Notes under the pieces: generated by a model
Told to the model about the DNA's origin: nothing
Database searches by the model: none
What the model saw: the letters and a program-made list of their open reading frames with translations, nothing else
In this document: one piece after another, positions 186 through 64,000 of the stretch
How the letters are laid out: each line of letters starts with the position of its first letter
How positions within the stretch are numbered: position 1 is the stretch's first letter
Program-made: the position numbers and the translations under genes
Origin: Leucoraja ocellata
Taxonomy: Eukaryota
Assembly (NCBI GenBank): GCA_036785375.1
Contig: JAWMAR010000148.1
Location: 4,960,001-5,024,000 of the forward strand
DNA length: 64,000 nucleotides
Reading direction: 5' to 3'

Positions 186-3100
186 TAACTTCAACTATAA
201 CTCAAACAAAGCCGAGTTTGAAGATTTGCTGACAGCAGGTTTGTATTTTTTCACCAGGTTCTGGTGGAAATAACTTTAACAAAATTACGGATTTTGAAAA
301 ATTATGTTATGGATTATCATCAGGATAAGTAGCTTAGAAAATTGTACAGAAGTAACGAGGAGTAAACCTGCTTCATTATTCTTGATTCAGCAAATTATGC
401 ATTAAACAAATGGAAGGAAACACTTCTTTAGTTAAAGAGTTAAAATCCATGACTGAGAGCTTCCATTTTGCTGGCAAATTGAAAGCTTATGAATTCAATT
501 TAGAGCAACTAACTTCTGGTTGATTAGTACAGTATGAATTCCAGGAGAAATGGTGAGGTCAAGTTCCTCACAAGTTGCAGTTCAAAGTTTAAATAAAAAA
601 TACAGGTATGTTAAAATGTAAACAAAAAGCAGAACTGCTGCCTCAATGTTAATACCAGCAGTTTGATAGAACTTATGTTCCACAACAGTAAAAGCATTAA
701 CAAGATACAGGGTTGAATTCTAAGCTATCATTTGGGTGATCGGTATATTTCAATTTTCATGTTTCTACTCTGGCAAGCATGCAAAGTTTTCTTCGGTAGC
801 CTTGAAGATGTGATTGACAGTGTTGGTTGTTGAAAGCAAGCGCTGTGAGTGGGGCAAAGAACTGCGGTGAGCTTTTGGTAAATAGCCAAGTTCCCTTCCA
901 TTCCTGTGTATTTGCACACTTACAGATGACTTGGTTCAAGATAGGCATTGGCAGGACCATGACTTGGGATACCTGCCAACCCACTTGCCAAGGGGAATAT
1001 GTGACCCAGAAAGAAAAGAAAATTGAAGTAAACATTTGAACGCAATCATACTCGGTACATAAACACCCTAAAAGAAAATGTATATCATTTTCAAAATCTA
1101 GTTGAGATTCAGTTTTGGTCCTGGGTTTGATGGGCCTTAGCAATATCAAAATGTGGTACTTATTCTCAATATTTCTCCCTTCAATTTTCTGCAGTAGAGA
1201 CCATCTTTACATGCCTTTTCCAAGTGTAATGATATGTATCCGTGGATGGTTGATAACAAGAATAATATAATTAAGTCTTAAGTTGTGTTCACTTGATAGT
1301 CGCCATAGTTGCACTCCAATAGGTCTACTGAATCATCATTGAAGAATGGAAAGCATGACTTGTTGCCCCTCGTGACATAAAAAGCATTGAAGCCTTACTG
1401 GTGTTTTTAGCTGAGTCTTTATTATCTGAGCCATTGAGAAGTTATCATTGTGATCTTGTGTAATAAACTGCAGTTTAAAAAAAAAATCCACCATTGATTG
1501 CTGTTCATTGATCAACAAAGAATGTCAAATGGAGCTGGTGTTAAAACTGAGCGGAAATATCTCTGCTGTAATAAGTAGAGTTATAGATGACTGGATAATA
1601 GACGAGTTTCTGAAGGGATGGTGTGACTTGTGTTGAAAAGTTGCAAAGTAAGTATATTTTCTACGTACTCTCCTCAATGTATATATCCTCAACGTACTTT
1701 GAAGCATATTTATAATGTAACAAATATAATTAACAAAACGGTTCTCCCAGGCAATATTGTTGAATAATTGCTGATGGTATAAAAAGCATTTTGCCCTGTT
1801 ATCTATTATGACTGCCATGTACCCATGAAGATCTGCTATTACTCATTATCAAGGAATAAATGAACTCTGCCTTAATTAAGAGCTTACTTTATATAATAAA
1901 AATGTAACTATATATCTTTGAAGCTATAAACATTTAAAATTGAAATAGGATGCTTTGAAAAGGCTCAAATTCCTCTTCTGAGTGGAGAAGACAATAATTT
2001 CTACAGTTTTGCAACTCCTCCTCTGACCTAAGTCTGCTAAGAGAGAGCAGGATTGTTTAGTGAGCTCCATCTCAATATTAATTTAATTTAATTTAATTCA
2101 ATTTAATTGTCATTTGGACCCCTTGAGGTCCAAACGAAATATCACTAGGTTGGCTTATATTACTAGTTATTATGCACATCATGGAAAAAAATTAACGAGT
2201 GAAATATTGAAAGTTGGAAGGTAAAAGATTTATCATGTTTTCACACAAGCAATAATTTTGGAGTAAGGCGGCAGCTTCATAGAAAAATGTAGCACCAATC
2301 TCACTCAGCAAGATGCCACAAAACACAGTAAGGTGAAGGAGGGATTATTCTGTTTTTTGTTAGTGTTCCTTAAGGAAGGGATGTGTCTCACTGGAAGAGC
2401 TTTGAGTAGTAGCTGGGGATTATTAAACGTTTATCAGAACAAACAAACGTGGGGTATAGGAAGGAACTCCAAATGCTGGTTGATACCACAGATAGACACA
2501 CAAATCTGGAGTAATTTAGCTGGTCAGCAAATGGAATTTAGCAACTCTGGAGAAAAGGAATAGGTGATGTTTTAACTGTCTGTGGAACTGTCCCAACCCA
2601 AAATGTTCCCTATTCCTTTTCTCCAGAGATGCTGCCTGACCCGTTTGAGTTACTCCAGCATTCTGTGTCTATATTCAAACAAACATGAGCTTGGAATAGT
2701 TTCCCATTCAAATGATGGAGTCCTCAACTTTACCCTCATTCCTCACTATTACAACTTGTAGAAAAACACAGTTTACATTTATGTTACTATGACATGATGG
2801 CAAGAAGTAAAACATTTTGAAATAATTTGCAGCTAATTTTAAATAATTGGTCCACGCTGTCAGGGGTGGTGTTGGAGGCAGATACTATAGTGGCATAGAA
2901 GAGGTTTCTTGATAGGCACATTGATATGGATTATGTGCAGGAAGAGATTTGCTTAACTTGGCATCATGTTCAGTTTAGTTTAGTTTATTGTTTATGTGTA
3001 CCAAGGAACACTGAAAAACTTTTTTGTTGTATGCTATCCAATCAGTGGAAGGAGTGTACATGGTTACAATCAAGCCATCAACAGTGTACAGATACTGGAT

Positions 3101-12860: not shown

Positions 12861-13770
12861 TGGGTGAAAGGAAATAGAACATTCAAATTGTGATCAGAAG
12901 TCGGTAGTTAGTAGTTATTTGATGAATACACAAATGCTCCGTTCGTAAGGTTTGTAAGTTTTGAATTAAAAAAGTAGTCTATGTTCACTTATCTCCCATC
13001 CCTGAGTCCGATATTTCCCTTCTATCCTGGATTCCAATACGCTTTCACCGAAACCTTGCCTATTTCCTGTGCTCCATAGATGCTGCTGCACCCGCTGAGT
13101 TTCTCCAGCATTTTTGTGTAACCTGCTTGATTGTTGCCCCATGCATCAACAGGAAGGTACAGGAGAACGGCTAAAAAAATGAAATAGTAGATCAGAGCAG
13201 GAAACCCAATGTCTGACTACATTATTAACATGTTTGATCCGTTTGTATTTCTGATCAATGGTGACTTCCAAGATGTTGAGGGTGGAGTCAGCAATGATAA
13301 TGCCATTGGATATCAGGTGTAGTCAGATCCTTCCTTGTTGGAACCACAAATAATATAGACCATTTTTCAGCTTGTGGTTGGATTATGGTGTAGGCATTTA
13401 AGCCTGGGCTGCATCATCATCTTTGGAGTTGTAAATGGGGTTGAAATTATGTCGTCATTGGTAGGTCTTCACTTCTGATGGAAATGGAAACAATGCAATT
13501 AATGATGCAGTTGTAGTTGGTTGTGCCCGGGACACTTCAGAGATGAGAGCAACTCTCAACAAAGATGGGAACAACTTCAGAGATGACCCGCTGATTGACC
13601 CGACAAAACATCCTCCCTTGACGCCCATTGATTTTAATTTTACTAGTGCGCCTTGTCGCCATATACTGTTAAATTCTGCCGTGTTGTCAAGGGGGTGTGA
13701 CTCTGACTTCATTACTGGAGATTAGCTCTTGAGACTAAGGCTGGGGTGAGATCTGGGGTCACGTTGTCCT

Positions 13771-14425
13771 GGTGAAACACAAACTGAGCGCCATATCAGA
13801 TTTGCCGAGCACTTGCGCTTGATCTGCCAAAGCCTACTGGATCCCCCATCTTAACGTTCCCATGCCGACCATTTTGTGCAGGGCCTCTTACTGCCAGAGT
13901 GTGGCCACATTCAAACTGGAGGAACAGCACCTCGTATCCCACTTGAGTAGCTTGCAACCCAATGGTATGAGCTGAATTCTCTAATTTTAGGTAATATCTC
14001 ACCCCATTCTTTCTTGTCTCTTCCCTTCTCCCTGACCCTGATGCACAACAATTCTCCATTGATCCCACTTCCCCACCCGTTCAATCCCTCCTTCCACCAA
14101 TATCCCTCCCTCCAGTTTACATTTCACTGCTGTAGACATAATCCCAAACTTTCAGACCTCTTCCCTCCTTCTCAACACCTTTGTTGTGTTCTTTAGCCCA
14201 CTTTTGTCAGCCTTATGTCTCCTTTTTATCTCTTGCTTTTGTCCACCCATCTGATAATCAAAACCTTATACCCAACGATCACTTGTCCCACCCCCCAGCT
14301 CTTTTCCAACTCTCCCTCCCCACCACACTCAGCCTGAAGAAGGGTCCTGACCTGAACAATTGCCTGTGCATGACCTCCAGAGATGCTGCCTGACCCAGTG
14401 CATTACTCCAGCACTTTGTGTTCTA
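13771..14425 (+). mobile_element. Decayed Penelope-like retroelement 3' fragment (GIY-YIG endonuclease C-terminus, pyrimidine-rich tail, terminal repeat)
   Basis: Frameshifted pieces RFAEHLR and FKLEEQHLVSHLSSLQPNGM...EFSNFR* (stop 13992-13994) resemble the Penelope endonuclease end. They are followed by the CTGAAGAAGGGTC...GATGCTGCCTGACCC repeat. Confidence 0.7.
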
Positions 14426-14559
14426 CCGTAACGGATTAGATACTTTCCAGCTCCAGAATGCAAAACTGGCTGGAAGAGGTATTGGCACCACTTCTGAACA
14501 CAGAACATTTCAGTTACATCAACCCTTGTACATAACACGATGGAATTCATGTCTTTGAC

Positions 14560-23335: not shown

Positions 23336-23625
23336 CTTTAGTTTAGTTTAATTCCGAGATACTGCATGGAAACAGGACCTTTGGCCCACCGATTCTGTGC
23401 TGACCGATTACCCACACACTAGTTCTATCCTACACACTAGGGACAATTTCCCAAAGACAATTAACCTACAAACCTGCACGTCTTTGCAATATGGGAGGAA
23501 ACCGGAGAACCCGGAGAAAACCCACAAGGGCACAGGGAGAACGTACAAACTACGTACAGTCGGCACCCGTGGTCGGGATTGAACCCAGGCAGCAACTCTA
23601 CTGCCGCACCACTGTGCTGCTGTAC
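23336..23625 (-). mobile_element. SINE copy
   Basis: TTTAG-repeat tail plus family core. Confidence 0.8.
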
Positions 23626-24318: not shown

Positions 24319-25029
24319 GAATTTCTTTTTGAATGACCAATTTAAAAAGTCATTCAGTAACTTGCTCTGCTTGCGTGACCTTGTCATTTCATGAGGGGCA
24401 GGAGCAGTGATGGTACTGGCATGTCACCAAAGAGCGGTCAGTCTCCTCTCCACTATTTACGTTGAATAATTTAACTTCTTGATTGTTTCAAACAACATGG
24501 AACGTTCAAAAATCAAAGAATGCAGAAAGTCGGGTGCTTTAGTGAGGATGGATATCTTGGTGGTATCCTGCACCTTTACCTAACCTACCGAAATTTCCGT
24601 AGCAAGAGGACTATTTGTGAATGGTGCAGGAAATAAGGAATGCAAAAGCAATTTCAAGTACCATTGTATATTTATTTATTCCCTTCAAGGATGACAATAT
24701 ACCATTTTGATCCCTTCTGGCTACACATGATTGTATTTTGCATTATGTGTTTAAATAATGATACTCGGGGTGGAATAGCCAGTCATTTTGTTGTACAGTT
24801 TACAAGCCGTATGGATATCCTCTGAGGACAACTGGTAATAGACGATAAATGTTGCCACATTAGGACCATCCAGATATCCAACGCTTTGGTCCATCCTTGT
24901 ACAAGTAAGCAACTTAAAGTCTCGTTAGCCTTTGGACAGTTGGAGTATATCAAATTTTTGTTGTTGTCAATATAATGGTTGAATATCATGATGATTTATC
25001 AAATCTATACCCATGTCCCTGAGGAATGT

Positions 25030-25230
25030 CTGAAGAAGGGTCCCAACTTGAAACGTCGGCTGTTCATGACCTCCAGAGATGCTGCCTGACCTGAGTCTGA
25101 AGAAGGGTCTCGACCCGAAACATCACCCATTCCTTCTCTCCAGAGATGCTGCCTGTCCCGCTGAGTTACTCCAGCTTTTTGTGTCTATGCTGCCTGGCCT
25201 ACCGAGTTACTCCAGCACTGTTTGTTTTAC
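25030..25230 (+). repeat. Penelope-type terminal repeat with a second copy nested inside; two hammerhead-like cores
   Basis: CTGAAGA...GAAAC at 25030 and at 25097; insert 25093-25186 flanked by ATGCTGCCTG(A/G)CCT. Confidence 0.75.
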
Positions 25231-28972: not shown

Positions 28973-29559
28973 TGGCGCAGTGGTAGAGCTGCTGCCTCAC
29001 AGCGCCAGAGACCCAAGTTCAATCCTGACTACGGGTGCTGTCCTATAGTTTAGTTTGGAGATACAGCGCGGAAACAGGCCCTTTCAGCCCACTGGGTCCG
29101 CTCCGACCAGTGATCCCCGCATATTAACACTAGGGACGATTTTTACATTCACCAAGCCAATTAACCTACATACCTGTACGTCTTTATGTGGGAGGAAACC
29201 GAAGATCTCGGAGAAAGCCCACGCAGGTCACGGGGAAAACGTACAAACTCCGTACAGACAGCACCTGTAGTCAGGATCGAACCTGGGTCTCCGGCGCTGC
29301 ATTAGCTGTAAGGCAGTAACTCTACCGCTACGCCACCGTATCGGTCCGGAGTTTGTACCCTCTCCCCTGTAATCATGTGAGTTTTCTCTGGGTGCTCTGG
29401 TTTCCTCCCACATTCCAAAGGCGTGCAGGTTTGTAGGTTAATTGACTTCTGTAAATCGCCTCTAGTGTGTAGGATGTGAAAGTGGGATTATACAGAACTA
29501 GTGGTCGATGGTCGATGTGGGCACGAACGGGCTGTTTCATGCTGTATCTCTAAACTAAA
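28973..29559 (+). mobile_element. tRNA-derived SINE (HE1/V-SINE-like) interrupted by a second copy
   Basis: A-box TGGCGCAGTGG, B-box-like GTTCAATCC, core GGAGTTTGTAC...GGTTTCCTCCCACA, and TAAAC-repeat tail. Confidence 0.8.
29047..29339 (-). mobile_element. Full SINE copy nested antisense in another SINE
   Basis: Reverse complement of the same SINE family, from tail (TAGTTTAGTTT) to head (CTACCGCTACGCCACCGT). Confidence 0.85.
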
Positions 29560-31974: not shown

Positions 31975-32240
31975 TTTTAGTTTTAAAGATACAGCGTGGA
32001 AACAAGTGTTTCAGCCGATCATTGATCATCCGCGTAGTTGTTCTAAGTTATCCCAGTGTTGCATCCTACACATGAGGAGGAATTTTACAGGAGCCAATTA
32101 ACCTACAAACCTGCACGTCTTTGGAATGTGGGAGGAAACCGGAGCACCCGGAGAAAACCCACGCAGTCACAGGGAGAACGTGCAAACTCCATACAGACAG
32201 CACCCATGGTCAGGATTGAACCCGGGTCTCTGGCACTCTA
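31975..32240 (-). mobile_element. SINE copy, target of a MITE insertion
   Basis: Family core, interrupted at TAA 32239-32241. Confidence 0.8.
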
Positions 32241-32241
32241 A

Positions 32242-32376
32242 TGCCCCTGTCCCACTTAGGAAACCTGAAAGGAAACCTCTGGAGACTTTGCGCCCCACCC
32301 AAGGTTTCCGTGCGGTTCCCGGAGGTTGCAGGTAGTGGAAGCAGGTAAGGAGACTGACAAAAACCTCCGGGAACCT
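32242..32376. mobile_element. Truncated Harbinger-type MITE inserted in a SINE
   Basis: TAA followed by TGCCCCTGTCCCAC (same terminus as the 46814 element); internal inverted repeat GGTTCCCGGAGGTT/AACCTCCGGGAACC; right TIR missing. Confidence 0.7.
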
Positions 32377-44413: not shown

Positions 44414-46813
44414 TATGTAGACATGAATAATATAGAATGAATGGATCCTCCAGGATCTAGTGAAAACAAGAACTACAAGTTTAATGACCAACAATCTTAA
44501 GATGCACGGGGCACAGTCTGGTCATTGCTGCAAAATCCTTCCCCATCACCAACTCAAAATTGTCAAAGTGGGAAATGCAGGCGGAATAGTCGACAATAGC
44601 CTGGCAGTTAGTTAACATTTCAGGTTAACCCAAAACTGTTTCAACCCGAAACGTCTCCTGTCCATTCCCTCCACAGGTACTGCCTGACGCTCAGAGTTCC
44701 TGCGCACTTTGCTTTCCGTTCAAGTTTCCCACATCTGCAGTCTAATGTCTACAGTCTGACAGTCAGTGGAATCAAGACCTGGAGCAGTAGTCGAAGCAGA
44801 TGCAATAGAAACATTTCAAATGACATTTAAAATTAATTTGCCCGGGTACATGAATAGGAAAGGTTCAGTGGGACATGGACAAATGAGACTGGCTTAGATG
44901 GGGCATCTTCATTGGCATAGACACATAAAAGGGCCCTTTGGCCCAACATGCTGTATTACTCAATGACACTATGATAACATTGAGTATATCATATTTCACT
45001 GATATGGCAGAACCCCAAAGGTAGGAGCACAGAGATGGCCAGGAGGAGGCTAGTGTCTCTAGAAGCTTCCAAAATTAACTCCAGACTCCACAAAGTCTCA
45101 TAGATCCAGACCAAACACAGACAAGGAAATGATCTAATGATTCACAATTCTTCCAATCCGTCTATGGGTATTCCTTAAAATTATTTTCACGGAAAGCAGA
45201 AAAATAAATCATCATGGTTGATTTAAATGGCAAAATGTCTCAAAAATCCGCTGCATGGAACTTGGGAAAACCCTTGCATCTGAAATTAGTTATTTTCAAA
45301 ACATAAACAGATTAAATGCCTGGTGATGTAAATATACACAAAGAAAATAAAATTCTTGGCTATGATCGTTCGCAACCTCAGGACATCCCATAGCTCTTTA
45401 AAGATAATTAAGCACTTTTAAAGCACAACGGTATTGCAGCAAATGTGGCAGCTAATTTGCACAGAAAACTTACACAAACAGAAGGGGGATAACAACTTTG
45501 GAGAGTACTTCGACTGTCATTGATCAAAGGTGACGGGGGAAGAAAGGGAGATGGGCTATGGATATAGGGAGTAAAAGAGTGAAAGAAAATGAGAGGGACA
45601 GTGAGAGAGTGTGAGAGAGGAGAGCAGGGTTATCAAGCCTAGAAGGCCACATCTATCACAGTTTGGAGAGATACCACCTCCTACCTGACTTTGATAACCA
45701 GAGTCTTCAGATTTTCCATGGGATCTTTAATAGTCTGAAAGGCTGACTGAGAATTTTTATTACTAGTTTTGTGTCTAGGTTGCTGCTTCTGTGGAGGTCA
45801 AGGTAACCTTGACTCCCAATGTCCTTGTTGCGAGATCTTTCAATCTATTGATGGCTGTTTTCAATGCACTGACAGAGCCTCCAATGATGAAATCTCTCCT
45901 TATTTCAGTCTTAAGTGGACTAACTCTTACTTTGAGAGAATGATTACCTATTTTTGATTCCTCAACCAGGTGTACACCCTTCCCAGGAGTGTGCAAGGAG
46001 TGCAGATGCACGTGTGGACACTTGTGAGTGTAAGAGAGAACATGGCAGCATGAAGGATTGATACCTATATGGCTGTTGTGCTCATGTTCACAAATGTGGT
46101 CAGATCATGAAACTTCTTCCCGCACTGATCCATTGTCATGGGTTCTCAGTGCAGGCAATGACTCTGTTAGACATCTCCTACCATGTCTTGCTAGTTGACA
46201 CATATCAGGGTCTCTCATCCCTTCTTGTGCACAAGATCTCCCTCCTGGGTCTCAATCTCTGCCTTAATGTCCAGATGGGTGAAGGAGGTGCATACTCCAT
46301 CTCCACCATAGCTCTCTTTCCTCCACTGTCACCATCATGGTCTACTGCTGTGTGGATGCCAAGGGAAATGTACCATTAAGGGCTTATGCCCTCCACAGTA
46401 ACGTAGTACCCCTGATGCTAAATTGGATGAGGCTCCTTCGGGAATGGCAAATTCTGAATGATTCTGGTACAAACTATGGCATTGAGTTTTTTCCCCATTG
46501 AAGAAAATTGGTTTTGGCCAATTTCGCGCAGATTTCTCAGGAGAAAATTGCAGGAAGTGGAGGGCAGTTGCAGGGGAGAAGAGGCCCATGCATTAGGGTG
46601 GTTTCCAATTCTGGCATCTGCTTTTGAAATATTTCATGGAACAATAGAAATGAGGAGCAGGATTAGGCTATTTGTTTCTTTGAGCCCATTCTACTATGAC
46701 TGATCATTCAGTTTTGTTAACACTGATCTCAGGCACATATATTATTAAACCTTTTAGTTGCTCATTTATATCTGGAAAACCCTGTGTTTATCAGGGAAGA
46801 ATGGGAATACTAA

Positions 46814-47097
46814 AGCCCCTGTCCCACGATGCGAGTGCTCTCCCGAGTTAAAAAAAAATCAAACTCATGGTACTTCCTCACGAGTATTTTTTTTCCTCTT
46901 GGAAACTTTTCACACAGTTGAAAAAACTTCACGAGTTTCCGCGTTTCCAGAGTACCTGCCGTTAGCATTACGAGGCGCTACGAGACATCCACGAACTCCG
47001 ACGTTCCCGCTACGAACATTCTACATACTTACCATGAGTGAATTTTTTTTAAACTCGGGAGAGCTCTTGGGTAAACTCGCATCGTGGGACAGGGCCT
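46814..47097. mobile_element. Complete non-autonomous PIF/Harbinger-type MITE
   Basis: TIRs AGCCCCTGTCCCACGATGCGAGT and ACTCGCATCGTGGGACAGGGCCT (1 mismatch), long subterminal inverted arms, TAA duplication at 46811-46813 and 47098-47100. Confidence 0.88.
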
Positions 47098-47515
47098 TAA
47101 CTAAGAACAGTGGAGACACAAGAAACAGTAGATGATGGAATCTTGAGCAAAAAACAAACTGCTGGAAGAACTCAAGCGGGTCAGGCAGCATCTGTGGAGG
47201 GAATGGACAGCTGGTGTTTGGGGTCCGTATCCTTCTTCAGACTAATTAATTTGTGGGGGAGAAAACTGGAAAAGGGAGCAGGGAAAGGCAAATACGATAT
47301 ATCGATTGGCAGAAGGATGGAGATAATGACAAAGACCGAAAGGAAATGAGGTAAGGTATGAGGTAAGGAAAGAGAAGTGAAATATAAAGCCAAAGGGTGG
47401 GATATGGGTGGAACTGAACAGGATGGAGGGGAAAGAGGAGGATAACAAGAAAATATGGAATTCGGGGAAGGGAGATGAGGGCAGAGTAGAAAAATGAGCT
47501 TGGTAACTTTGGTAG

Positions 47516-47670
47516 ATACAAAATGCTGGAGTAACTCAGTGGGACAGGCAGCATCTCTGGAGAAGGAATGGGTGACGTTTTGGGTCCAGACCCTTCTTCA
47601 GACTGAGTTACTCCAGCATTTTGTATCTACCTTCAATTTAAACCAGCATCTGCAGTTCTTACCGACACAT
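47516..47670. repeat. Short inverted-repeat element with 16-bp TSD
   Basis: TTGGTAACTTTGGTAG at 47500-47515 and 47671-47686. Confidence 0.85.
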
Positions 47671-50600
47671 TTGGTAACTTTGGTAGTGGGAGCCGATGGG
47701 AGAACAAATCATTTGCAGTGCGTAACTTTGTATTCTTACCATAAAGCCAGTAATGTATGTTAAGTTTACCATATGTCCAAGTGCTCCATAGAATGAAGAT
47801 ACATATGCTGTATATCAGATTGTGAAGTAGTGACTCTGGCAGGCCAAAGAGACAGCAATGAGTTGAAGTTGTAAGTGATCATAACCAATATTGAGTTCAA
47901 ATATTATGACTGCTAAATAACGAGACAGAAAATAGCTTTTCTAATTAGTTTTGTCACAGTCTGTTCTTCTGGACACTGAATTACATACTGTAAAACATAA
48001 GCTTTCCAAAGAAAAATTAACAGCTGTTTCAATTTACTCCCAAATTACTTTCTCTTCTGGGAATATATGTGTACCCAAAAGCCAATAACAAAACCTTAAT
48101 CGTTTAATTAGGCATTTACAAATAGACTTCTCAAAAGTACTTAAATTAACCAAAAATGATATTATTAAGAATAGTGGAATTATGAAAGCAGTAATTCTTC
48201 AACTTTTCTGAAAATGACTGCAAATTAGTTAGCAGAACAGCAAACTAAATATCGGGGGGGGGGGGGGGGTTCAGCCTGAATCCTGCAGGATATACTTACC
48301 CCTAAATGCTGTCTCTATAAAAATATTTCTCAATAGCAAGGCAGGCACGAGGGGAGCTGATTTCACAGTGCACACTCATTCAAGGCATAACTGAGTTGCG
48401 TGAGAAATTTCCATATCTCACATACCCTTGTAAATCACAGTTGAACAGTAGTAACCCAAAGAATGAAGAAAGCCATGGCTGGTTTTAATTTTAATGCTGC
48501 ATCCTTGCCAATGGCTGGGACTGATTCAGAGACTATCCTTTGGTAACGCAGGGCTTTATAAGCCAGATCACCTCAAAATACTTTATGATTTTGGTGCTCT
48601 CGTCACGTTATGCATTACGGGCCAGGGTGGTGTTCCAACTGCTGGCCGCGTACCAAGAATTACTCAGGAGGTCATGAAAGCTGTTTAGCGTGATTAGTCT
48701 GAGCAATTCTGGAGTAAACAACACACATCAACTGTACACCATATTTCTCTTTAAACATCATTGAAATTAACATTGTAAATGCTGCTTGATAGAAGTGGGA
48801 AAACTAAAAATCAAACTAATGCCTTTAAAGTATTTAGAGAATTAAAGTATTCAGAATTTGCCAGTTTTCTCAAAGCCGCCTGAACATTGACAAGTTGTAT
48901 TTTTTAAAGACAGATTTACTGTCAGGTCAAAATAACCTGAGAGAGGGAGTTGATGATCAAAATGCCGCACTACAACTGACATTGAAGTGGGACATCCGTG
49001 TCATTGAGTCCCAGAATGTAGGTCCACATGTCTGGTTCTCCCACTTCCCCCACACCCCACCCCCAGAAACTCCACTTCTCAGTCAGGTTGCCTGGGGGGG
49101 GGGGGGGGGAGGTGGGGGGGCTACATTGAAAAATATAATCTCCAAAAAACGAGAAGTAAGAATGGCAGGCATGCCAACCTGGGTCACAAAGTCCAAAAGA
49201 CTACTAATGTACAACACGTGCATGGCCCAGGGGATACTTTGTCTGTCAAATTTCTGGAAAGAGCGTAGTGTGTGGCAAGAGGAAAATTGACATTGTATTT
49301 AAGTTGGGGAAATAATTAAACGTAACGGTAAAGAAACTTATTTACAGAAAAAAAGTGAAACTTTCAGGATGGCCATTACTGGAACGCCTATACACTTCTA
49401 TAGTTAAATGTAATTTTGCAGCCAAGGGCTTCCTGGCTCAAATGCACTACCGAAGTAACTCTCTCTCACACACACACACACGGGAATTACTGTAACCACA
49501 CTGCAATCTACTGAGCTGCTAAATGAGTATTACCATCTGGTTTAAAGTGAATACTAGGTTTGCTTAAAAGGAACGGTCCAATCCAGAGAAAATGCACACT
49601 CTTTACTGGGCCTGGCTTTAGAATTAAACTCCTCTTGCTGTTTCTTTGCTGTTCTCTTCAAGTGAGCATCTTTGCACACTAAATAATGTTCCTTTTATGT
49701 TTGCTGTCTTTCCAAAATATTCCATCAAATCAGTGAAATAGGCTCAGCCCTTTACACACTATAAGCAGAGTGTAAATAATTGCAAAAAAATAGAAGTCCA
49801 CATTCTTTTTAAATTGTCAAACATTAAAAAAAATATTATTTTTGGAAGGATTTAAATATCCATTCTGAAAATGGATTTAGGAAAATGAAATTAAAGAGTA
49901 GAAGTGGATTTGCTTTACAACGTGAGACTACAGCAGACAAAATGCAACTTATGACCGACTTATAATAGTTACGAAATTACACTAAATTCAAAAGTAATTC
50001 AGAAGAAAATTCAAAGGAATACATGTTTTGTACATATTTGTGCGCGATGCAAGAAAGCACCATTTCTCCAAGCAGCCCACTAATAAACTAATCAAGGTCT
50101 TTAGAGGATTTGTTGAAATTATATTCTATGCAATTTTACTGTGGCAGGTAGACCAACAAATCCCAAATAATAAGCAAAACACAAAGTGATGGTGGAACTG
50201 GGACAGGCAGCATCAGTGGAGGGAAGGAATGGATGACGTATCGGGTTGAGAGAATGGTCTAGACACAAAAGTCACCCATTCCTTCTGTCCCGCTGAGTTA
50301 CTCCAGCATTTTGTGTCTATCTTCGGTTTAAATCAGCATCTGCAATTCCTTCCTACACAAGTTCCTCCAGCCCATTTCTTTTTTTACTCAATGATGAAGA
50401 ATTGGTGTATGAGGTCTAAAATACAATTCATAATAACGTGAACAATTGTGCTAGGTAATTCAGGAGATTAGGGATGAAATTCTTTAAACTAGTTACTGGA
50501 GGCAGCAGAAACCGGAGAGAGTTTCCATGCTTCCAAGGTAAGAACCAAACAGAGCGCCAGGAGTCTTCCATTATTTGAATCTGACAATTTACTGCAGTTA

Positions 50601-51789
50601 AGCTAACTTATACCCACTAGACTGGGAAAAATCAGGGAAATTGCCTGCAGAAGGAACTTAGTGGTATCCGCATGCCATAATGTGATCTGTTCTAAATATC
50701 CATGAAAGAGCGATCTTCATTACTTACCTGATCCACCCTCCTCCTCCACCAATCTTCTCTCCCCCGCTAACTCTTCTGCCAGTCTATCCTTTATTACCTG
50801 GACCCACCTATCACTTGCCAACTCGTGCCTCATCCCTTCCCTTAGCCTCTTTCTAGCAGCTATCGCTCCTCTACTCCGTCAGTCTGAAGAAGGGGTCTTG
50901 ACCCGAAAAGTCTGTCCATTTCCCTCCACAGATTCAGCTTGACATGCCGAGTCCCTCCAGTAGTTTTGAACATCTGCAGTCTCTTGCGTCTGTGTTCTCA
51001 TTCCTAGTTGATTGTGGGCTAGTGGACCTTACAATTAACTGCAGAACTCCTAGGCTTGGATATTGCTTGGGGAATAGTTGGGGGGGGGGGGAGAAGAAAA
51101 TCAACTTCCAATTGTTTCCAGTGTGTCTATAGGAGGGTGTGAACATGTGGCCTTCAGGCAACACTGACAACATTTGGCTGTGGCACTCATTCAACAGCCC
51201 GCTGGCAATTTATATTCAGAGATGAAGAATGGGCGCTTGATAATGGAGAACAGATATCACCTGGCAGTCAGCAGCAATTACCAAGTATGGAACGGAGGAC
51301 ATTTGACACACGGGTCTCTTCGGCACTATACCTTCACTTAGACGTTGGCTAATCTTGTCTCCCCTTAAAAACCAAGTTCAGCCCAGAAGTCACAGTCTGC
51401 AACTTATAACCTCATACTTATTACTCTGTAATCTTCCTTGTCAATTGTAGCCACACTCATTTTAATAAAATACAATTGTTTTGAAAGAATTTTTGATCAT
51501 TGCTTTTAAATAAAAACTCACCATCTAATACTAGGTGTAAACTTTGTATATCTACTATACCATGAACGGTGACAGATAGCTCTGCTCTTATGCCTTGCAT
51601 AAAGATTACTTGCATTGATTTAATACAGAACTCACACTCTAAATTAAGCAGCTTACGTTATTTATTATCATACCATTTCAAGATCTTTTTTAAAATCTAT
51701 TTTTCTCAATATATTTTTAAAAGGTATAATTTTGATTCAAACGGTGAGTGTTTGGTACTTTATGGGATTACAACAAAAATATGGAAAAG

Positions 51790-52065
51790 CACTAGAGACC
51801 CAGGCATGATCCTGATTATTGGTGCTGCCTGTGTGGAGTTTGTACGTTCCCCCTGGGACTGCGTGGGTTTTCTCCGGGTGCTACGGTTTCCTCTGCACTC
51901 CAGACATGTGGGTTTGTAGGAGAATTGGCTTCTGTAAATTGCCCCCAGTGTGTAGAATCTGAAAGTGGGATACCAGGGTACGAGTGCACTGATGGTGAAT
52001 GGTTGTCATGTCTCGGTGGGCGGAAAGGCCCATTTACACGCTCTATCCCCAAACTAAACTAAACC
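51790..52065 (+). mobile_element. SINE copy
   Basis: Family core and AAACT-repeat tail. Confidence 0.8.
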
Positions 52066-53142
52066 ATGAATGAATAAAACTATGAAATACAACTGCAAAT
52101 ACAGACAATAATTGAAATTCTGCTTAAGGACTGATTCATTTCTTCAGTGAAAGCATACAGTTTATCTTCTTTGTATCCCAGAATGAGAGGACGACTCTTT
52201 AAAAAAAAAAAAAGACAACTGCCTGACCTATTGTGCTGGAAGAATTTTAAAACAGAGCTAGATAAATTCTTGACCAGTATGGGTGTCAAGGATTATGGGG
52301 AGAAGGCAGGAGAATGGGGTTAAGAGGGAGAGATAGATCAGCTACGATTGAATGGCGATGTATACTTGATGGACCAAATGGCCTAACTCTGCTCCTATCA
52401 GTTGTGACAATGAATGCTCTTCTACAGGAGCGTCTCAGTCCTACTTCCCGCAGAATGCAACAGATGTTAACTTGCCTTCACCCTGAGCAAAGAACCCTTG
52501 ACATTAACACTAAGACCAACATTCTTCCAGCTCGGTAGGTCAGCCAGTTGTCTTTTTTTTTTTAATTAATTTTTTTTTTTTTTTAAATTAATTTTTATAA
52601 AAGAGTCACCCTACCATTCTGGTTATGAAGATGTACTTCATTTTGTTCCCACTTAAACCATTACTATAAGAGATATCAGGAAAATTTGTGTAATACACAC
52701 AATTCTCAGTAATTTACACCATTACGAGCAGATTTACAATCAATTAATTGTATGGCCCACCCACCCACCACTGCCTGTGACTGTTTTTGCTATAAATGAT
52801 TATCACTTATATCAGCAATATAGTTTTACTTATTACATATTGGTATTAGTCATTACCTACATATTATTAAATCAATTTTCAAAAATAGAAGGCAATTTTC
52901 TAGAAACAACTACAGGGTACTGACTACTTTTGATCAGGACTTAGAAGTTTAGGAAAATACCTTTAAGTGACGTTTTATAGCGTCCTTTCAAATACATCAT
53001 GATTAAAATGGTAGGACTACTGCATCAGCAATCAATATGACAGGGCATTATACAAAGAAAAATAGGTTACCAAGCATACAGACCAACATTTTTTTTTTGA
53101 TGAACTAATGCCATAGAACAATATGAATGAATCATTTTATCT

Positions 53143-53455
53143 TAGTTTAGTTTAGGGGCACAGCATGGAAACATGCCCATCAGCCCTCCGAGTTCAAGCC
53201 GACCAGTGATCACCCACACACCAGTCCCAAGCCAAACCATTTTTGCATCCTACACACTAGGGACAATTCATAGAAGTCGGCAATTAACCTGAAAACTGGC
53301 ACATCTTTGGAATATGGGAGGAAACCAGAGAAAACCCACACAGTCACAGGGCGAACGTACAAATTCACCCAGACAGCACCCGAGGTCAGGATGGAATCCA
53401 GGTCTCTGGCGCTGTGAGGCAGTGGCTCTACCATGTACACCACTGCTCTGCCCAC
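53143..53455 (-). mobile_element. SINE copy
   Basis: Family core and tail; forms an inverted pair with the 51790 copy. Confidence 0.8.
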
Positions 53456-54589
53456 ACATCGTTTTTTTCCCCGAATATGTAGTACTGCCATGGTATGGTT
53501 GTGATATCTACTTGCATAAAAATGTTAAAGCATTTCAAAAACTTAAGTCAGATATTGTAGAATGTTTCAGTAACATTGTGGGATGAGATTTTAAATTGAT
53601 GAAACAAGTCTGCAACAATCTCCTAAATGAATGCCGCCTGGTGGTGTTTACCTGCATTACATTTGAATTATTTAATGGGTAAAATATCGACATTTGAATG
53701 AAGAAACAAGAAACTGCAGAAGTTGGGATCTTGAGCAAAAAAACAAAGTACAGAAGAAACTCAGCGGAATAGGTGTGGAGGGAATGGACAGATGACATTT
53801 CAGGTAAGGACCTTTCATCAGACTGTAGTAACCCTTCTTCACACAAGTCATTTAAAGGCCAGCTGGTCAGAATTCAGGATCAACATTTTCCTGTGAGGAA
53901 GGTGTGGATGGCAAAGTTCAGGAACATTGGATGATGAGAGACGTTGAAATTTAATCACAAAGAAAATGAAGTATATGGAGATTATGGAAGCTGAAATAGG
54001 ACTATGCCTTTGAGGAACACAAAGAAATCAGGTGAAAGCTTAAACAGGTACCAGGAAGGCTAAAAGCAGCCATGAAATGTGCTCTGCAGGTTTAACTAAA
54101 GAGAATCCCAGGGAACTTCGTACATACATTAAGAACAAGGGAGTAACTAGGGAGAGGGTGGGACCACTCAAGGACAAAGGAAGATATGAAGCCAGAGGCA
54201 GTAAGTGAGGTTCTAACGAGTACTGTCTACTCCCTCCACTGATGTTGCCTGACCTGCTGAGTTCCTCCAGCACTTTGTCTTTTGCTCAAGATTCCAGCAT
54301 CTGCAGTTACTTGTGTCAGGGGAAGTAAGCATGGTACTAAATGATAACTTCACATCGGCAGTCACCAAGTAGAGAGAAGGGCCTTTTCCTGTGCTGTATT
54401 GCTCCATGGTCTTCCTCACATCAGCTTAATTCTACTCAAAAGTGAAAGTGATATCAATTATTTTCATAGCAATTATGGCCCAAGGTTAGATTTCACAGAA
54501 TGTTGTGAATACAACAAGCAAACAGATAATTTCTTCTTACTGCTGCAACTTAATTATTTAAATATTTGCCGCATTGATATACAGAGGAA

Positions 54590-55325
54590 TCTTGTGACAC
54601 AAGTCCGAAAGTGCTGAAAGTGGCTACAGTTGCAAAGAAGGTAAATTGCATACTTATCCTTCATCTGTCAGGTCATAGGGGATAAAAGTTGGGAATTCTT
54701 GTTCCAGCTTAGGTGACGTTTGATGTAATGTGTACAGTTCTGCTAGCCACACTATAGGAAGAGTGTGGAAGTTTTGGAGAGGGTGTAAAAGAAGTTGAAC
54801 AGGATATTGATGGATTGGAGTGTATTAGCTACAAGGAGAGGTTTCACAAACTTGGATTGTTTTCAGTGGAGCATTAAAGGCTAAATTATAGAAACATACA
54901 AAATAGGTGCAGGAGTAGGCCATTTGGCCCTTTGAGCCAGCATCGCCATTCAATATGATCATGGCTGATTGATCATCCAAAATTGACCTGATAAGAGGTA
55001 TATGAAATTATGAGAAGCACAGATAGGGTAGATGGTTGGAGTCTCTACCCCAGGGTATTATCGTCAAATACTTGAGGGCATTGGTTTAAGATAGAGGGTG
55101 AAATTTTAAAGGAGATGTACAAATCAAGTTTTTTTTTTTCACAGAGATTGGCAAGTGCCTGGAACACAATGCTAGGGCCAGTGGTAGAAGCAGATACGTC
55201 AGCAATGTTTAAGAAGCATTTAGACAAGGAATACAGGGACACCGACCATCTGCAGACACATGGGATTAGTTTAGATCGGCGCAGACATCGTGGGCTGAAG
55301 GACTTGTTCCGGCACTGTGCTGCTC
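54590..55325 (+). mobile_element. CR1-clade LINE 3' fragment containing a short antisense LINE-tail insertion (~54885-54980)
   Basis: CR1 ORF2 3' remnants (GTGTACAGTTCTG, GGAGAGGGTG, FFSQR...WN) interrupted by TAGAAACATA...GGAGTAGGCCATTTGGCCC. Confidence 0.7.
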
Positions 55326-56019
55326 AATGTAATAATTTATCTATAACATTAGAAAGTGCAATTCACGTTAAAATGCAGAAAATTAGACAAAACAAAGAAA
55401 AACTAATGGGAATGAAAGCACAATAGCTAAGTTATTGGACTAGCATTAGAGGACTGGACTATTGATCTCAAAACATAATTAAATCCTGCCATGGCAGATG
55501 GGAAATTTAATTCAAAATAATCAAATGAATAAATAGTTATCATTAATGGTGACACATGCAAGTTCTCACTGCTGTGGCTCATATTCAAATCATTTATTCA
55601 CACTTCAGGTGAGGGGAATCTACAAGGGACCTCAATCCTGTATTCTCCCCACAACTCCCTATCCACACGCACGCACACACACGCAACTAAAGCTTATAAG
55701 GCATATTAAGCCAACATTTCATAACTAATACTGAATCTTGTTCGGTAAAAGTTTTAAAAGTTATGAAACCATACAAGATGTAATTAAGATATCAGCTCTG
55801 ATCTACTTTAATGGTGAAACAGGATAGAGGCCAGATTGCAATAAATTGCATGACCTTCAGTGCATTAAACACATTGATAAATATAATAATATAGATAATG
55901 AGTCTGATTTTTTTTAGAAATTGTTGTTACAAAGTTTGATAAATACTTTAACATTTGTTTTTCACTTTTACTTTTTAATGTGATGAATTTTGAATGTTGC
56001 AATATTTAGTTACTCATGA

Positions 56020-56231
56020 AGATACACAAAATGCTGGAGTAATTCAGCAGGACAGGCAACATCTCTGGACGGAAGGAATGGATGACGTTTCAGGTCGTGA
56101 CGCTTCTACGAGAAGAAAAAAAATTGTTTTTTAAATCATTTTTTCCAGTGATGCAATCTGTCCCGCTGAGTTACTCCAGCATTTTTTGTTTATCTTCAGT
56201 GTAAACCAGCATCTGCAGTTCCTTCCTACAC
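56020..56231. repeat. Short inverted-repeat element with 16-bp TSD
   Basis: ATTTAGTTACTCATGA at 56004-56019 and 56232-56247. Confidence 0.85.
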
Positions 56232-56364
56232 ATTTAGTTACTCATGACTCTCCAAACCAAAAGAATGCTATTAAATAAGATTTGACCAGCACCTCTGGAC
56301 CTGTGTGCCTACAAAACAAAGTTCAGGACATAACATACAAGTCAGAGTTTGACCGGGGACTCAC

Positions 56365-56572
56365 CATCCTGTGTGTTCTGAGTGAGAATGTTGCATAGTT
56401 CCTTCTGGCTTATACCAAGGCACTGACAAACCTCCTCCCTGCTGTAAGGTTCCGGGTGCAGCACTTGTTCCACAGTTGAAAGCATTGTCTCCAGATCCAC
56501 TCCAAGTCCATGCTGCAAGTCTCCCAGTTTTAAAAGTTTCTGCCACTCAAGCCCTTTAGCTTTTGCTAGGAC
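56365..56572 (-). CDS. GALK2: GALK2 coding exon (not in the ORF track frame)
   Basis: [69 protein letters not shown]; 208 nt; acceptor TATTTAG, donor GTGAGT; phase 0 to 1. Confidence 0.95.
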
Positions 56573-56792
56573 CTAAATACCAAAAGAAGGCACACAGTTA
56601 ATATTACACAGAGAAACAAGGAACTGCAGATGCTGGAGTCCTGATTAAAAACACAAAGTGCTGGAGGATCTCAGCAGGTCAGGAAAACACCTGTGGAGGG
56701 AATTGATAGGTGACATTTCAGGTCCAGGCCATTCATCTGAAGCAGAATCGTTGTCATTCAATTCCTCTCTACAGATACAGCCTGACCCACTG

Positions 56793-57107
56793 ACAGCGCA
56801 AACTGATGTGACAGGAGAATTTGGGTGTCATTTTACAGTCACAACTGTGCCTTTACCTGTCTGCACATCTGTACACCCGCAGCGACGGCTGCGGAGGGTT
56901 GAGGTCCCGACCACGGGGGTAAATGGAGGAGGACTGACCAAATTTTGTGCCTTCCACCATAGTGATGAATGCTGTGGCGGATGTTTGTATTAAATTTTTA
57001 GTGTGTTTGTGTGTGTTCTTTATCATTGTATCGCTGCTGGCAAATTCATTTCACTTGCACTTGATGTGCAATGTGACGAATAAAGCTGTATTGTATTGTA
57101 TTGTATT
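56793..57107 (+). mobile_element. 3' end of a non-LTR retroelement with AATAAA and a TGTAT-repeat tail
   Basis: Ends GAATAAAGCTGTATTGTATTGTATTGTATT and interrupts a Penelope-type terminal repeat. Family not determined. Confidence 0.55.
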
Positions 57108-58004
57108 ATAGTTGGCTACAAAGGTCCATTGCAGCCGTCTCCTCCTCTAGAACCCTCCAAACCTCTTCATTAAGATATCTATAAGATTAATCTCTGTTCC
57201 ACCACATAACTAAGCTTCTATTCATTGCATCAGCAAATTTCTTTTGCAGCCTTTCTATGGTCTGTCTATATATCCTTTGCACACTCAAGCCGGGAATAAT
57301 TTTATAATTCTGGCTTATCTGAGAGGGATAATTCTATATTTTTTAAATTCAGTACCCCTGTTAGAAAAGTAGATTGGGCAAGCAGTAGAGCTATTGGCTC
57401 TCAATAAACACACTCGCCATTTGTCTCACCAAGTTAACCAAGTATAAAGTAAGAATGTGTAGGAAGGAACTGCAGATGCCGGTTTAAACCGAAGATAGAC
57501 ACAAAAAGCTGGAGTAACTCAGTGGGACAGGCATCATCTCTGAAGAGAAGGAATGGGTGACGTTTCGGTTCGAGACCCTCCTTCAGGCATAAAGAAAGAA
57601 TGTTCACATGGACATTATCATGGCGTTATGGATTTACCTGTAGTATTGGGAGCCACAACTTGATGTAGCAAAAGCAGAATAAAAATACCTCCTCCTGAAG
57701 TTGCACAAAGTGAGATGTAGCAACCATGCTGCTTATTTATTTTTCATACTAGAATAACATTTATACCATTAGATTAGGACGCTGGACTGATTAGCAAAGG
57801 AAAAGGCATGCTGTTATGAAGTAATAATTCACACTCCACAAATCAATAAGATTATTAAATGTTTGGAAAAGGATTTTAACTGTTGGAGGAAGATTTCTGA
57901 GGAAAGAAAACATTGCTACCAGCAGCTTGTTACATTCTAATTCTTACCAAGCTAGCTTTCAGCTCTTCATCTCCATAAATGCAAGCTTATCCCTAACTGG
58001 TTGT

Positions 58005-58340
58005 TCAGAGATACAGCACGGAACCAGGCCCTTCGGCCCACATAGTCATGCCACTATTGATCACGCATTCACACTATTTCTATGTTATCCCACACTTTCT
58101 CATTCACTCCCCCCACACACCCAGGGGCTATTTACCGAGGCTAATTATCCTACAAACCCCGCATGCCTTTGGTATATGGGAGGAGACCGGGGAACCAGGA
58201 GGAAACTCACGCGGACACAGGGGGATCGTGCAAACTCCACACAGACAATACCCAAGGTCAGTATCAAACCCAGTTATCTGGCGATGTGAGCCAGCAACTC
58301 TACCAACCGCATCAGTGTGCTGCCCTTTGTGCCACTGTGC
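58005..58340 (-). mobile_element. SINE copy
   Basis: Family core. Confidence 0.75.
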
Positions 58341-61472: not shown

Positions 61473-63721
61473 CTATGAAAGATAAAATGGTCATTTGTAG
61501 ATATGTAACAGGTAACACCATTCGACATGTATGTTTAGACCAACCTGTACGAAGCTTTGCGTTACATAACAACAATATCGCACGCACCTGCAATATTTGT
61601 AGACCATGGCTCAGAGTATTTCATGGTAATAATCCCTTTCCCTTAAAGGTTAAAGGCAACGAGAACAAAATGAGGAAATAATTTCACGTTGACTAGCTCT
61701 CTGTTAGCCAATCAAAAATTGGACAGGAATAAGGCCAGCAAGTCGGTTTTCATTAAAACAAAATAAATGAAGTAGTGATTTCAGAGATGTTTACGAATAT
61801 GAAGAGATGTCAAGAAGGCCACTTGATAATTTGCATAACATGAAAGCATTGAAACATGATTATGCATAAATAATTTGGGACAGAGAGAAACAAAATTACA
61901 AAGAGAAAATTATGAAATCGCAAAGGTCAATGATTGAAGCAGAGACCATGTCTGCATTTCAGTTCGATAAGAGGCTGGGGCAACGGGAAATAATGCGATT
62001 TGAAAACAAGTCTGGCTGGTTATTGCTTGGGTGGAGGAAGAACATTCATATGGATTGGCTGGGCTGTAATGGCACATGTCCATACCGCAATTACTTCCCT
62101 TTGATACAAATGGCCTCAGTACACATGGACGGCTGTGGCAGTTCCACTCTGGTTTTCTTTCAATTACCTTCTGCTTAAACTGTAAAGAGAGACCATGATT
62201 ATGCCCTATGTGGTCAAATGGCTCCCAAGTCACTCGTACATTAAGAATAAACAGCGCAGTTAGGCACGAGCACTGCATCATGTTATCATGAGTCAGCATT
62301 TTCAGTCGAAGAACAGAGAATGAAATAAAAAGATGTTTGTGTGACAAATATTTGGCAGAACTGGAAAAATTTTGTTTTTTATTTTCCACATATCCTTGGT
62401 CTTCTGAATCTGAATAAGAACATGGGCAAAGAACAGATGTACTTCGAGGCTCCTGGCAGCCATGGGTGTTCCAGGCAATTATGAATTTTCAGCTGACCCA
62501 ATGTTCCACTCCATGTGATTTAAATTATATGTTCGAAGATCACGCACTGCATGGATCTCAATTAAAAACATGAAAGAAATGTACCATGATTGCAAGGTTT
62601 GTAGATGGGATGCTTTCAGTTGGCAGAATGTCCTACTGTTGTACAACTTGTATAAATAATTAATTTGTACATTGCAATCAAAAACTATTGCACAGTCCAG
62701 TACAAAGATCACCCATAATAATCTTTTGAAGACTACCAGAGGGAAAATAAAATAAACAAATTAAACTCCAGTTTATTACAACCTCCTGGGACCTTTGACT
62801 AGTTGTTAATAATTCAATTTTAAAAGCAAATGCTGCTCAGCAAGCGGTTTAGAGATTATCATTTGTCAGTCCGTGTGAAATTCATGTACTGTACATGGTC
62901 TAATGACATTTCATCATGGATTCTATTTCACTCATGGTAACTTGCAAGGATAAACACTTCATAAAATAGTATCCGTCCTTCAAATTTACTAAGCAATCAC
63001 AGCATGTTGTCACCGACAGGCCACCTTCAAAGATGAGCATGATAACACTAAAATCTTCATGCTTCATGTAGTGCACGGTGACTTCACTTTCATGTGCCTG
63101 CTACATGGAAAGACCATAGAATCAACGGCAAATTTTCCAATGATATGAACACACACTTATAAAGCTTGTGAACATCGTTCGAATTTGATGGTTCCTTCCT
63201 TAAACCTACTCATCATTTCTCTGGACAATCATTTATTACCAGTTCAGCTGCAAAGCTTTCTTCACCGCAGCTACCAAACAATTACCAACTTCATGAACTT
63301 ATCCCTTCTATGAATATTTCACAAAGACCAATGCTAGAAATCTTCTGAAAAACATGTTAGTACTTGCTGAAGCAGAATAACAGTGCATATCCTCAAGCAC
63401 TTTGTGTCCTTTTTTGCAAACCAGTATGTGCAGTTCCTTGTTCCTACATCCAAGAGTGCTTCTGGATACTTTTTCTGCTATATTTCTAAGAGTAACTGAT
63501 CGAGAACATGCAGATAATGTCTCGATCTTTTCTCAATATGGTGAAAAAAATGTTCATACACCAATCCCAAGATACTTCCATGCTTTGTGCGAAACCTCTC
63601 TCATGTACTTAATGATATTAGGGTATTTTAGGAGAAACTGATTACCTGACATGCAACACATATCTGAAGAGGATGGTCTGAGCATCTTCTGACTTTTCAT
63701 TTCTATTATTGGGTATGTTTA

Positions 63722-63895
63722 GAAGGAATTGCAGATGCTGGTTTATACCGAAGATAGACAGAAAATGCTGGAGTAACTCAGCGGGTCTGGCAACATCTTT
63801 GCAAAAAAGGAATAGGTGACACTTCGAGTCACCTATTCCTTTTCCCCAGAGATGTTGCCTGACCCGCTGAGTTACTTCAGCACTATGTGTCTATC
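63722..63895. repeat. Inverted-repeat copy of the same element; other copies at about 2452-2675, 20405-20610, 30232-30380, 34203-34415, 50176-50360, 57459-57588 and 59845-60012
   Basis: Arms GATAGACA...AAAAGGAATAGGTGAC and GTCACCTATTCCTTTT...TGTCTATC around a 7-nt loop. Confidence 0.8.
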
Positions 63896-64000
63896 CATTA
63901 ACGGGTATGATAGACTCAGCAATGATAATGCAATAGTAGGTAACTAGATTTTCATGTTAGAGATGACCAATGTTGGGCAAATTTGCAAAATAAATGTTAT

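Follow-up and report, generated by a model that had tools for sequence, protein, structure and literature searches.

Short head-to-head repeats in a 64-kb window of the Leucoraja ocellata genome are probably insertions of a Penelope-like retroelement

Introduction

The described systems closest to the repeats reported here are endonuclease-bearing (EN+) Penelope-like elements (PLEs) of the Penelope/Poseidon and Neptune clades, which combine a hammerhead in the pseudo-LTR (pLTR), a head-to-head, 5'-truncated partner and a variable target-site duplication (TSD) (PMC4209133, PMC3846280, PMC8557442) with a tail of 30-40 nt at one end and very short insertions (PMC3846280, PMC8557442, PMC9977147). 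The pLTR hammerhead is described as minimal, with an extra base before stem II, and hammerhead copies in opposite orientation are reported 100-700 bp apart (PMC4209133). The account of rotifer PLEs includes an inverted truncated partner, a TSD of 8-10 bp, a 31-bp tail on one of the inverted pLTRs, and solo pLTRs (PMC3846280). A one-sided tail and non-autonomous PLEs are also described in PMC8557442, which states that the formation of the inverted repeat and the one-sided tail is unresolved, and de novo PLE insertions have a reported median length of 128 bp (PMC9977147).

The best biochemical parallel is the Poseidon element of Anolis carolinensis (PAc), whose protein is reported to cut and extend both strands and is modelled as a dimer, whose reverse transcription (RT) begins at two internal positions delimiting the tail, and for which ribozyme cleavage is dispensable (PMC11167929). 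The PAc starts are placed about 110-120 nt downstream of stem II (PMC11167929); the tailed end of the repeats studied here lies ~120 nt from stem II. Metazoan non-LTR retrozymes share with our copies a non-coding, hammerhead-bearing, PLE-related character and TSDs of more than 4 bp, and are described as head-to-tail tandems with a ribozyme in each unit and a circular RNA (PMC7229834; bioRxiv 10.64898/2026.07.22.740005). Our copies, in contrast, stand head-to-head or singly, and their motif is minimal and mostly broken.

Our literature search returned no paper on this family or on the per-insertion pairing of two RT starts, and none on hammerhead ribozymes in elasmobranchs; an entry for the family in Repbase, Dfam or the supplement of the chondrichthyan retrozyme preprint is nevertheless likely. 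The repeats are real and abundant, and are most likely explained by a known class, the Penelope-like elements. An initial suggestion that they form an under-described class is not supported, as their anatomy is that published for PLE insertions (PMC3846280, PMC8557442, PMC4209133). Their value is practical and mechanistic and lies in the use of a pairing rule and a fixed 5' boundary as a test, the insertion anatomy itself being already known.

Results and Discussion

Arms of one short unit in the window

An iterated profile applied to the window, the whole 64,000-nucleotide (64-kb) stretch of DNA analysed, found 39 arms of one unit of ~135-136 nt, distributed over 25 loci and occupying 3376 bp (5.3%). 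The unit is oriented by the strand bearing the ribozyme motif, and the copies are non-coding. The high copy number claimed by the first-pass annotation is borne out, its "more than ten copies" being too low. Twelve of the 25 loci are head-to-head pairs. Single or nested arms account for 14 of the 39, and four arms extend upstream into a longer element. One younger and at least one older subfamily can be distinguished. The index locus and representative others are listed in Table 1. Compared with EN+ PLEs as described, the window copies mostly consist of the pLTR end only, stopping at a fixed point before the hammerhead, their TSDs reach 16 bp, and their density is about 25 loci per 64 kb.

Table 1. 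Features of the index locus and of other representative copies (window positions)
Feature	Position	Strand	Remark
Left TSD copy	47500..47515	+	last 5 bases (47511-47515) also belong to the arm (microhomology)
Untailed ("short-end") arm, unit ~1-95	47511..47606	-	reaches fixed 5' boundary just before hammerhead
Minimal type I hammerhead motif	47574..47604	-	predicted inactive in index copy
Index hammerhead, first part	core 47601-47595, extra base 47594, stem II 47593-47590/47585-47582	-	
Index hammerhead, second part	GAAA box 47581-47578 with G12 -> A, cut site after 47574	-	
Head-to-head junction	47602..47606	.	4-5 bases common to both arms; alignment overlap and direct reading
Tailed ("long-end") arm, unit ~69-136, 5'-truncated	47602..47670	+	
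Tail of ~39 nt, one end only	47632..47670	+	
Right TSD copy	47671..47686	+	
Pair with exact 16-bp TSD: short arm (-) and tailed arm (+) separated by ~22 nt of filler	56004..56247	.	
Complete tailed arm, single, 15-bp TSD (1 mismatch)	57444..57603	-	
Pair, tailed arm left, 12-bp TSD (1 mismatch)	2440..2687	.	
Older arm hosting nested young untailed arm (25093-25186), 14-bp TSD	25028..25227	+	
Pair, tailed left / untailed right, decayed 16-bp TSD (3 mismatches)	63702..63909	.	
Long copy: pyrimidine-rich stretch and broken frame (13750-13995) precede unit (14331-14426)	13750..14426	+	
Older-subfamily long copy adjoining index element, extends upstream of hammerhead	47111..47321	-	

One tailed and one untailed arm in each pair

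The 3' ends of the 39 arms are bimodal, with 15 at unit 87-106 (untailed arms), 19 at unit 127-136 (tailed arms), four shorter, and a single one between, which is an alignment run-on into a TSD. Every one of the 12 pairs consists of one tailed and one untailed arm (0.5^12 = 2.4e-4), and the rule holds for nine of nine when three decayed or composite pairs (36552, 50172, 56618) are left out. Unpaired arms, by our own count, comprise seven of each kind. In the index element, the left TSD is followed by a minus-strand untailed arm that reaches the boundary, then by 4-5 shared bases, a tailed arm beginning at unit 69, and the right TSD. Its two arms form a perfect stem of 30 bp (47511-47540 with 47602-47631) that includes the last five TSD bases.

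Such pairs resemble the products of LINE-1 twin-priming, in which second-strand priming yields an inversion with junction microhomology and a variable TSD. Twin-priming arms, however, abut and end in poly(A), whereas the arms of the window pairs overlap by 19-88 unit positions and lack poly(A).

Proposed mechanism

We consider it probable that an endonuclease-bearing Penelope-like retroelement left these repeats as very short insertions, with the fold-back formed at integration. The copies are assigned to PLE-derived insertions because they show four PLE cis features: a minimal hammerhead, an inverted 5'-truncated partner, a one-sided tail and a variable TSD. The unit would correspond to the first ~135 nt of the pLTR transcript region, laid out as the boundary, the minimal hammerhead, ~65 nt, a first RT start (~97-100), a tail of ~36-40 nt and a second start (~135). 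The element protein would cut both target strands ~8-16 bp apart, giving two free 3' ends and the TSD, and each free 3' end would prime a cDNA, with the untailed start and the tailed start used once each. The two antisense cDNAs would point inward, toward the 5' end of the RNA, and would often run off that end just before the hammerhead, probably at the transcription start. Microhomology-mediated repair would join the two into a head-to-head hairpin between TSDs, and one priming event would leave a single arm. The fold-back would thus arise during integration, with no master passing it on, and the hammerhead would be passively carried and then decay. Counting against a separate start for each strand, the anole work reports start sites that do not differ between strands; no treatment of their pairing per insertion was found in its account (PMC11167929).

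A more specific form of this mechanism is conceivable, though we hold it with considerable doubt: the copies may be integrated "strong-stop" products, one dimer-bound RNA having been primed twice at its two starts by the two ends of a staggered double-strand cut, with strand displacement and run-off at the capped 5' end just before the hammerhead. If true, this would account in one step for the tail at one end, for the inverted head-to-head arms and for why tiny copies of PLEs in general are in excess, and natural records of strong-stop products, making up about 5% of the window, would number some hundreds of thousands in the genome. One RNA template may have served both arms, but two arms of a pair resemble each other more closely than arms from separate loci at only two of the 12 loci (47500 and 63715), the other ten being uninformative. 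In a family this dense and sharp-ended, both the tailed/untailed pairing rule and the 5' boundary can be counted over very many loci, and the regular ends offer a usable test of how PLEs copy themselves.

The 5' boundary and the long copies

Among the 34 arms considered for 5' ends (the four long copies and one nested remainder being excluded), 12 start at unit 1-6 (p 4e-6 versus uniform). In the four long copies of the window, the boundary consists of a pyrimidine tract plus AG and no TATA box was found, so that it could equally be a splice acceptor or a transcription start. In D. virilis, the intron is reported to end at helix I (PMC4209133) and the start to lie 46 bp before the intron (PMC2377424).

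Outside the window, a degenerate hammerhead pattern identified 38 metagenome loci. A TATA-like hexamer starting 30-38 nt before the motif occurs in six of 26 non-redundant outside loci compared with 36 of 553 background windows (p 0.008, for a window picked after seeing the data), suggesting that transcription begins at the boundary itself in the TATA-bearing outside families.

The same boundary is what a dedicated short master would produce, that is, a SINE-like non-autonomous element that would span unit 2-136, contain both RT starts and a promoter of its own inside the unit, and be mobilised in trans by a PLE, its fold-backs still forming insertion by insertion. Its sharpness fits such an element, as does its resemblance to the initiator-element consensus. 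None of the ~15 young arms extends upstream, the four that do being older, and non-autonomous PLEs are known from published descriptions (PMC8557442, PMC9977147). On the other hand, 582 X17 contig records, among the 24 rows listed of 13,757, continue upstream of the young-arm boundary into a C-rich tract, showing that there are long copies resembling the young unit; moreover, where TATA boxes lie upstream of the unit, as in the outside families, mini copies would be left without a promoter. We regard a short master as unlikely, and retain direct insertion from a longer PLE as the preferred reading.

A link from the long copies to a PLE coding region is so far a lead. In the long copy at 13750..14426, the broken frame at 13750-13995 resembles, by eye, the order of residues in a GIY-YIG C-terminus when compared with the outside locus L026, and we treat it as a candidate remnant only. 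This is a short, frameshifted piece for which the references are only distant. Protein database searches for a GIY-YIG identity gave three candidates each, none of which scored; there was no match in Pfam or PDB, the representative protein library returned two unrelated low-score matches only, and the best ESM Atlas values (0.89) were for other families and below the lead threshold. Searches of the long-copy region against the outside loci with tblastx and phmmer gave no match. Frameshift-aware scans of 13750-13995 with single proteins were blank, and a profile of 65 fish GIY-YIG sequences scored 32 against shuffled maxima of 39-53.

In the outside locus L026, the hammerhead motif lies ~680 nt downstream of a 396-aa ORF with a Pfam GIY-YIG domain (E 2e-5, above cut-off), and the relatives of this ORF are fish proteins, several with RT domains. 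Fish PLEs on four of these contigs (L014, L022, L026, L033) share with the window family the core motif, an upstream GIY-YIG ORF, two 3' ends and a mini head-to-head copy. They differ in that they show no detectable DNA or protein similarity to window positions 13500-14450, have a tail of ~65 nt and, in several cases, carry a TATA-like box upstream. Eight rows among 34 distinct matches had an inverted partner no more than 400 nt away (L035 being entered twice and four rows lacking upstream sequence). One of these loci, L022, contains an untailed arm reaching the boundary and a truncated tailed partner, a mini pair built like the index copy, and L011 contains another untailed/tailed mini pair. 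Outside the window family the one-of-each rule does not always hold, as the L035 pair is tailed/tailed (171/171). At the four fish mini-copies examined, no TSD could be identified.

Junctions between arms

Two to six overlapping bases mark the junction in seven of the 12 pairs, and a gap or filler of 5-22 bases in the other five. The junction is distinct at each of the 12 loci, and the fold-back was therefore made per insertion. The description of the repeats as a family of fold-back elements is not supported, every pair having its own junction and arm lengths, with no fold-back master being copied.

Inversions could also arise by self-priming on an antisense template or by snap-back of a single cDNA, the tail then coming from endonuclease resolution. 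This route is a published proposal for head-to-head PLE junctions with palindromes (PMC3846280, PMC8557442). The 5' boundary is near-palindromic, and the two arms of the index copy match exactly over 30 bp and have in common one base absent from all other arms. The index anatomy, however, implies a short cDNA without the tail and a tailed cDNA truncated at unit 69 and so without positions 1-68, and a simple snap-back cannot build the index copy from these. Independent truncation of both arms and the gap or filler at five of 12 junctions also argue against it. We judge a snap-back origin improbable, and joining of two separately primed cDNAs remains the reading that we prefer.

The hammerhead motif and RNA evidence

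The 5' part of the unit contains a hammerhead core, one extra base, a four-pair stem II, a GAAA box, a palindromic helix III and a two-pair helix I. Fifteen young arms give a consensus that matches the minimal type I hammerhead perfectly, including the extra base before stem II. All core bases are intact in just one of the 18 arms that span the core, the host arm at 25028, whose stem II includes two wobble pairs; in the index copy, G12 is replaced by A. A ribozyme-like centre had been proposed for the repeats at first reading. The ribozyme-like part exists, but it sits at the 5' end of each arm, and appears central in pairs because the arms meet head-to-head.

A scan of the window at Rfam gathering thresholds gave no matches. 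Free-energy folding of single copies favoured an alternative hairpin over the hammerhead, a result uninformative on ribozyme activity because it is expected for a dimer-dependent minimal motif. The exact 27-nt motif of the window had no matches in metagenome contigs or in viral contigs, and the degenerate motif had none in prokaryote genomes.

The hammerhead and the long TSDs together raise the question of a non-LTR retrozyme, in which a ribozyme-processed monomer or a circular RNA from tandem repeats would be the mobile unit. Animal retrozymes have been tied to PLE pLTRs, one chondrichthyan genome being included (bioRxiv 10.64898/2026.07.22.740005), and 2128 RNA reads join a ~66-nt part of the unit head-to-tail. 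The part so joined, however, omits the first half of the ribozyme. No hammerhead tandem array occurs in the window, the sole 1.9-copy match being a nested insertion, and the motif is minimal rather than canonical, with 17 of the 18 cores broken. Copies start ~30 nt upstream of the cut site, with only one of the 34 arms starting around it, at unit 30-36. The retrozyme reading is already largely refuted, we give it very little chance, and the retrozyme-like label of the first-pass annotation is not supported, since the window has no head-to-tail array with a ribozyme in each unit, nearly all cores are broken and the 5' ends lie off the cleavage site.

In the oligo-dT poly(A) RNA run, there was no pile of molecule starts or ends, and no reads fell in the unique bin beside the index element. 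RNA depth over the repeat was near-equal on both strands, which is uninformative on expression of the index copy.

Target-site duplications

All five direct duplications proposed at first reading were recovered with the same coordinates, lengths and mismatch counts, the repeats at 47500/47671 and 56004/56232 being exact over 16 bp. At the index locus the TSD is counted as 11-16 bp because its last five bases are also arm sequence. The repeat at 25079/25187 was considered as a possible element-internal repeat and this was rejected, as it flanks the young arm at 25093-25186, which has inserted into an older family member (25028-25225), and is a true TSD of that arm.

The duplications exceed chance, as judged against control pairs whose left and right ends were taken from two different loci. 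Direct repeats with a score of at least 8 were found at ten of 21 curated loci and in five of 418 mismatched-end control pairs, and a score of at least 12 was reached at three of 21 loci and in no control pair; curated ends were set by eye with knowledge of the repeats, which favours the observed side. The four long copies were excluded from this set because their upstream ends are undefined. With uncurated locus ends, a score of at least 12 was found at three of 25 loci and in none of 220 controls. TSD length among the significant cases varies from 8 to 16 bp, as the claim of variable long TSDs had it.

The strong hairpin (DNA fold z -8.9), small size and high copy number of the repeats suggest a MITE derived from a DNA transposon, an identity with almost no remaining likelihood that is refuted by the variable TSDs of 8-16 bp and by single-arm copies with their own TSD, and further opposed by unequal ends with a tail at one end only and by 12 different inner junctions with no uniform copies of one master. 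The first-pass annotation was right to set this identity aside, and its proposals of a Penelope origin and of retro-insertion are likewise supported, in contrast to its fold-back family, retrozyme likeness and under-described class. Hairpins of this kind are easily misfiled as MITEs or SINEs, and this would hide a large PLE share of the genome.

Copies in other organisms

Twenty listed sequencing runs of seven organisms cover part of 46000-50000, and four of 24 runs were aligned to 46500-58500. Among the 24 rows listed of 13,757, family-wide breaks at unit 99-100, the untailed end, account for 598-858 records per run at 47518 and 632-773 at 50324, and breaks at the tailed end for 513 records at 56235. 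Joints between repeat ends were taken to reflect unique spacers lying between distinct copies and were given no structural meaning. The runs of organisms C, E and G showed no empty site among the 15 joints listed of 22,544, and they carried the right end of the insertion. Contigs of these three organisms start inside the tailed arm, at 47641, 47643 and 47631, respectively, and continue for 1.8-2.5 kb into the unique flank; they differ at 43, 64 and 119 letters. The index insertion is thus shared, on right-end contigs, to about 4.7% divergence, X17 alone bridging it under a 31-letter rule.

Arm ends and nested copies

At four tailed arm ends (47670, 56233, 57456 and 25915), 1-4 letters, A/T-rich, are common to the end of the tail and the first bases of the target-site duplication (TSD), and at the untailed ends 47511 and 56017 the arm end and TSD have 3-5 letters in common. 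These common letters may reflect primer-template pairing at both of the proposed reverse-transcription starts. Insertion of a Penelope-like element (PLE) into its own pseudo-LTR has been reported, and the placement of young copies within or abutting older copies of the same family, at 25028-25227 and 50172-50359, is in line with such insertion. At 53700-53845, a lone old arm is followed by a short second hammerhead-end piece in the same orientation.

PLE-type loci outside the window

Among the metagenome loci matching the degenerate hammerhead pattern, six (L005, L018, L019, L025, L033 and L036), representing several unrelated PLE-type families, have a TATA-like box that precedes the hammerhead by about 31-36 nt, a spacing which suggests that transcription in these families likely starts at the 5' edge of the ribozyme. 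The head-to-head pair in locus L035 is an exception to the rule, seen in the window, of one tailed and one untailed arm per pair.

Transcribed tandem form

In 2128 poly(A) RNA reads (run X24, leaving the window sequence at 47524), the PLE-unit family appears as a head-to-tail tandem of about 66 nt (unit positions ~25-90), lacking the first half of the hammerhead. This tandem is a transcribed PLE-derived minisatellite located elsewhere in the genome of the RNA donor.

Other features of the window

The FGF domain exon matches FGF7 (E 2.6e-19) better than FGF10 (1.7e-11) in the PDB comparison; the window comes from a jawed vertebrate, whose FGF7 locus it represents. A second dispersed family, about 180-230 nt long and found at nine places (dispersed-repeat groups D2/D3/D9), is a candidate vertebrate-wide SINE core by its appearance. 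When translated sequences are compared, fish contig L018 matches this family too. Three further stretches belong to other high-copy repeats, and a joint between two of these on opposite strands, 52311/54969, occurs in 1549 RNA reads.

Coordinates of repeats, the outside pair and the host exon
Feature	Position	Strand	Remarks
Second dispersed family	6041-6233, 14672-14837, 21579-21810, 23428-23620, 29186-29475, 32017-32257, 51788-51893, 53270-53433, 58113-58305		
Further high-copy repeats	52266-52397, 54888-54969, 6403-6534		
Head-to-head pair	L035:1801-2159		tailed/tailed, near-perfect 171 bp, 15-nt centre
FGF7 coding exon	8203-8568	-	Pfam FGF; PDB comparison
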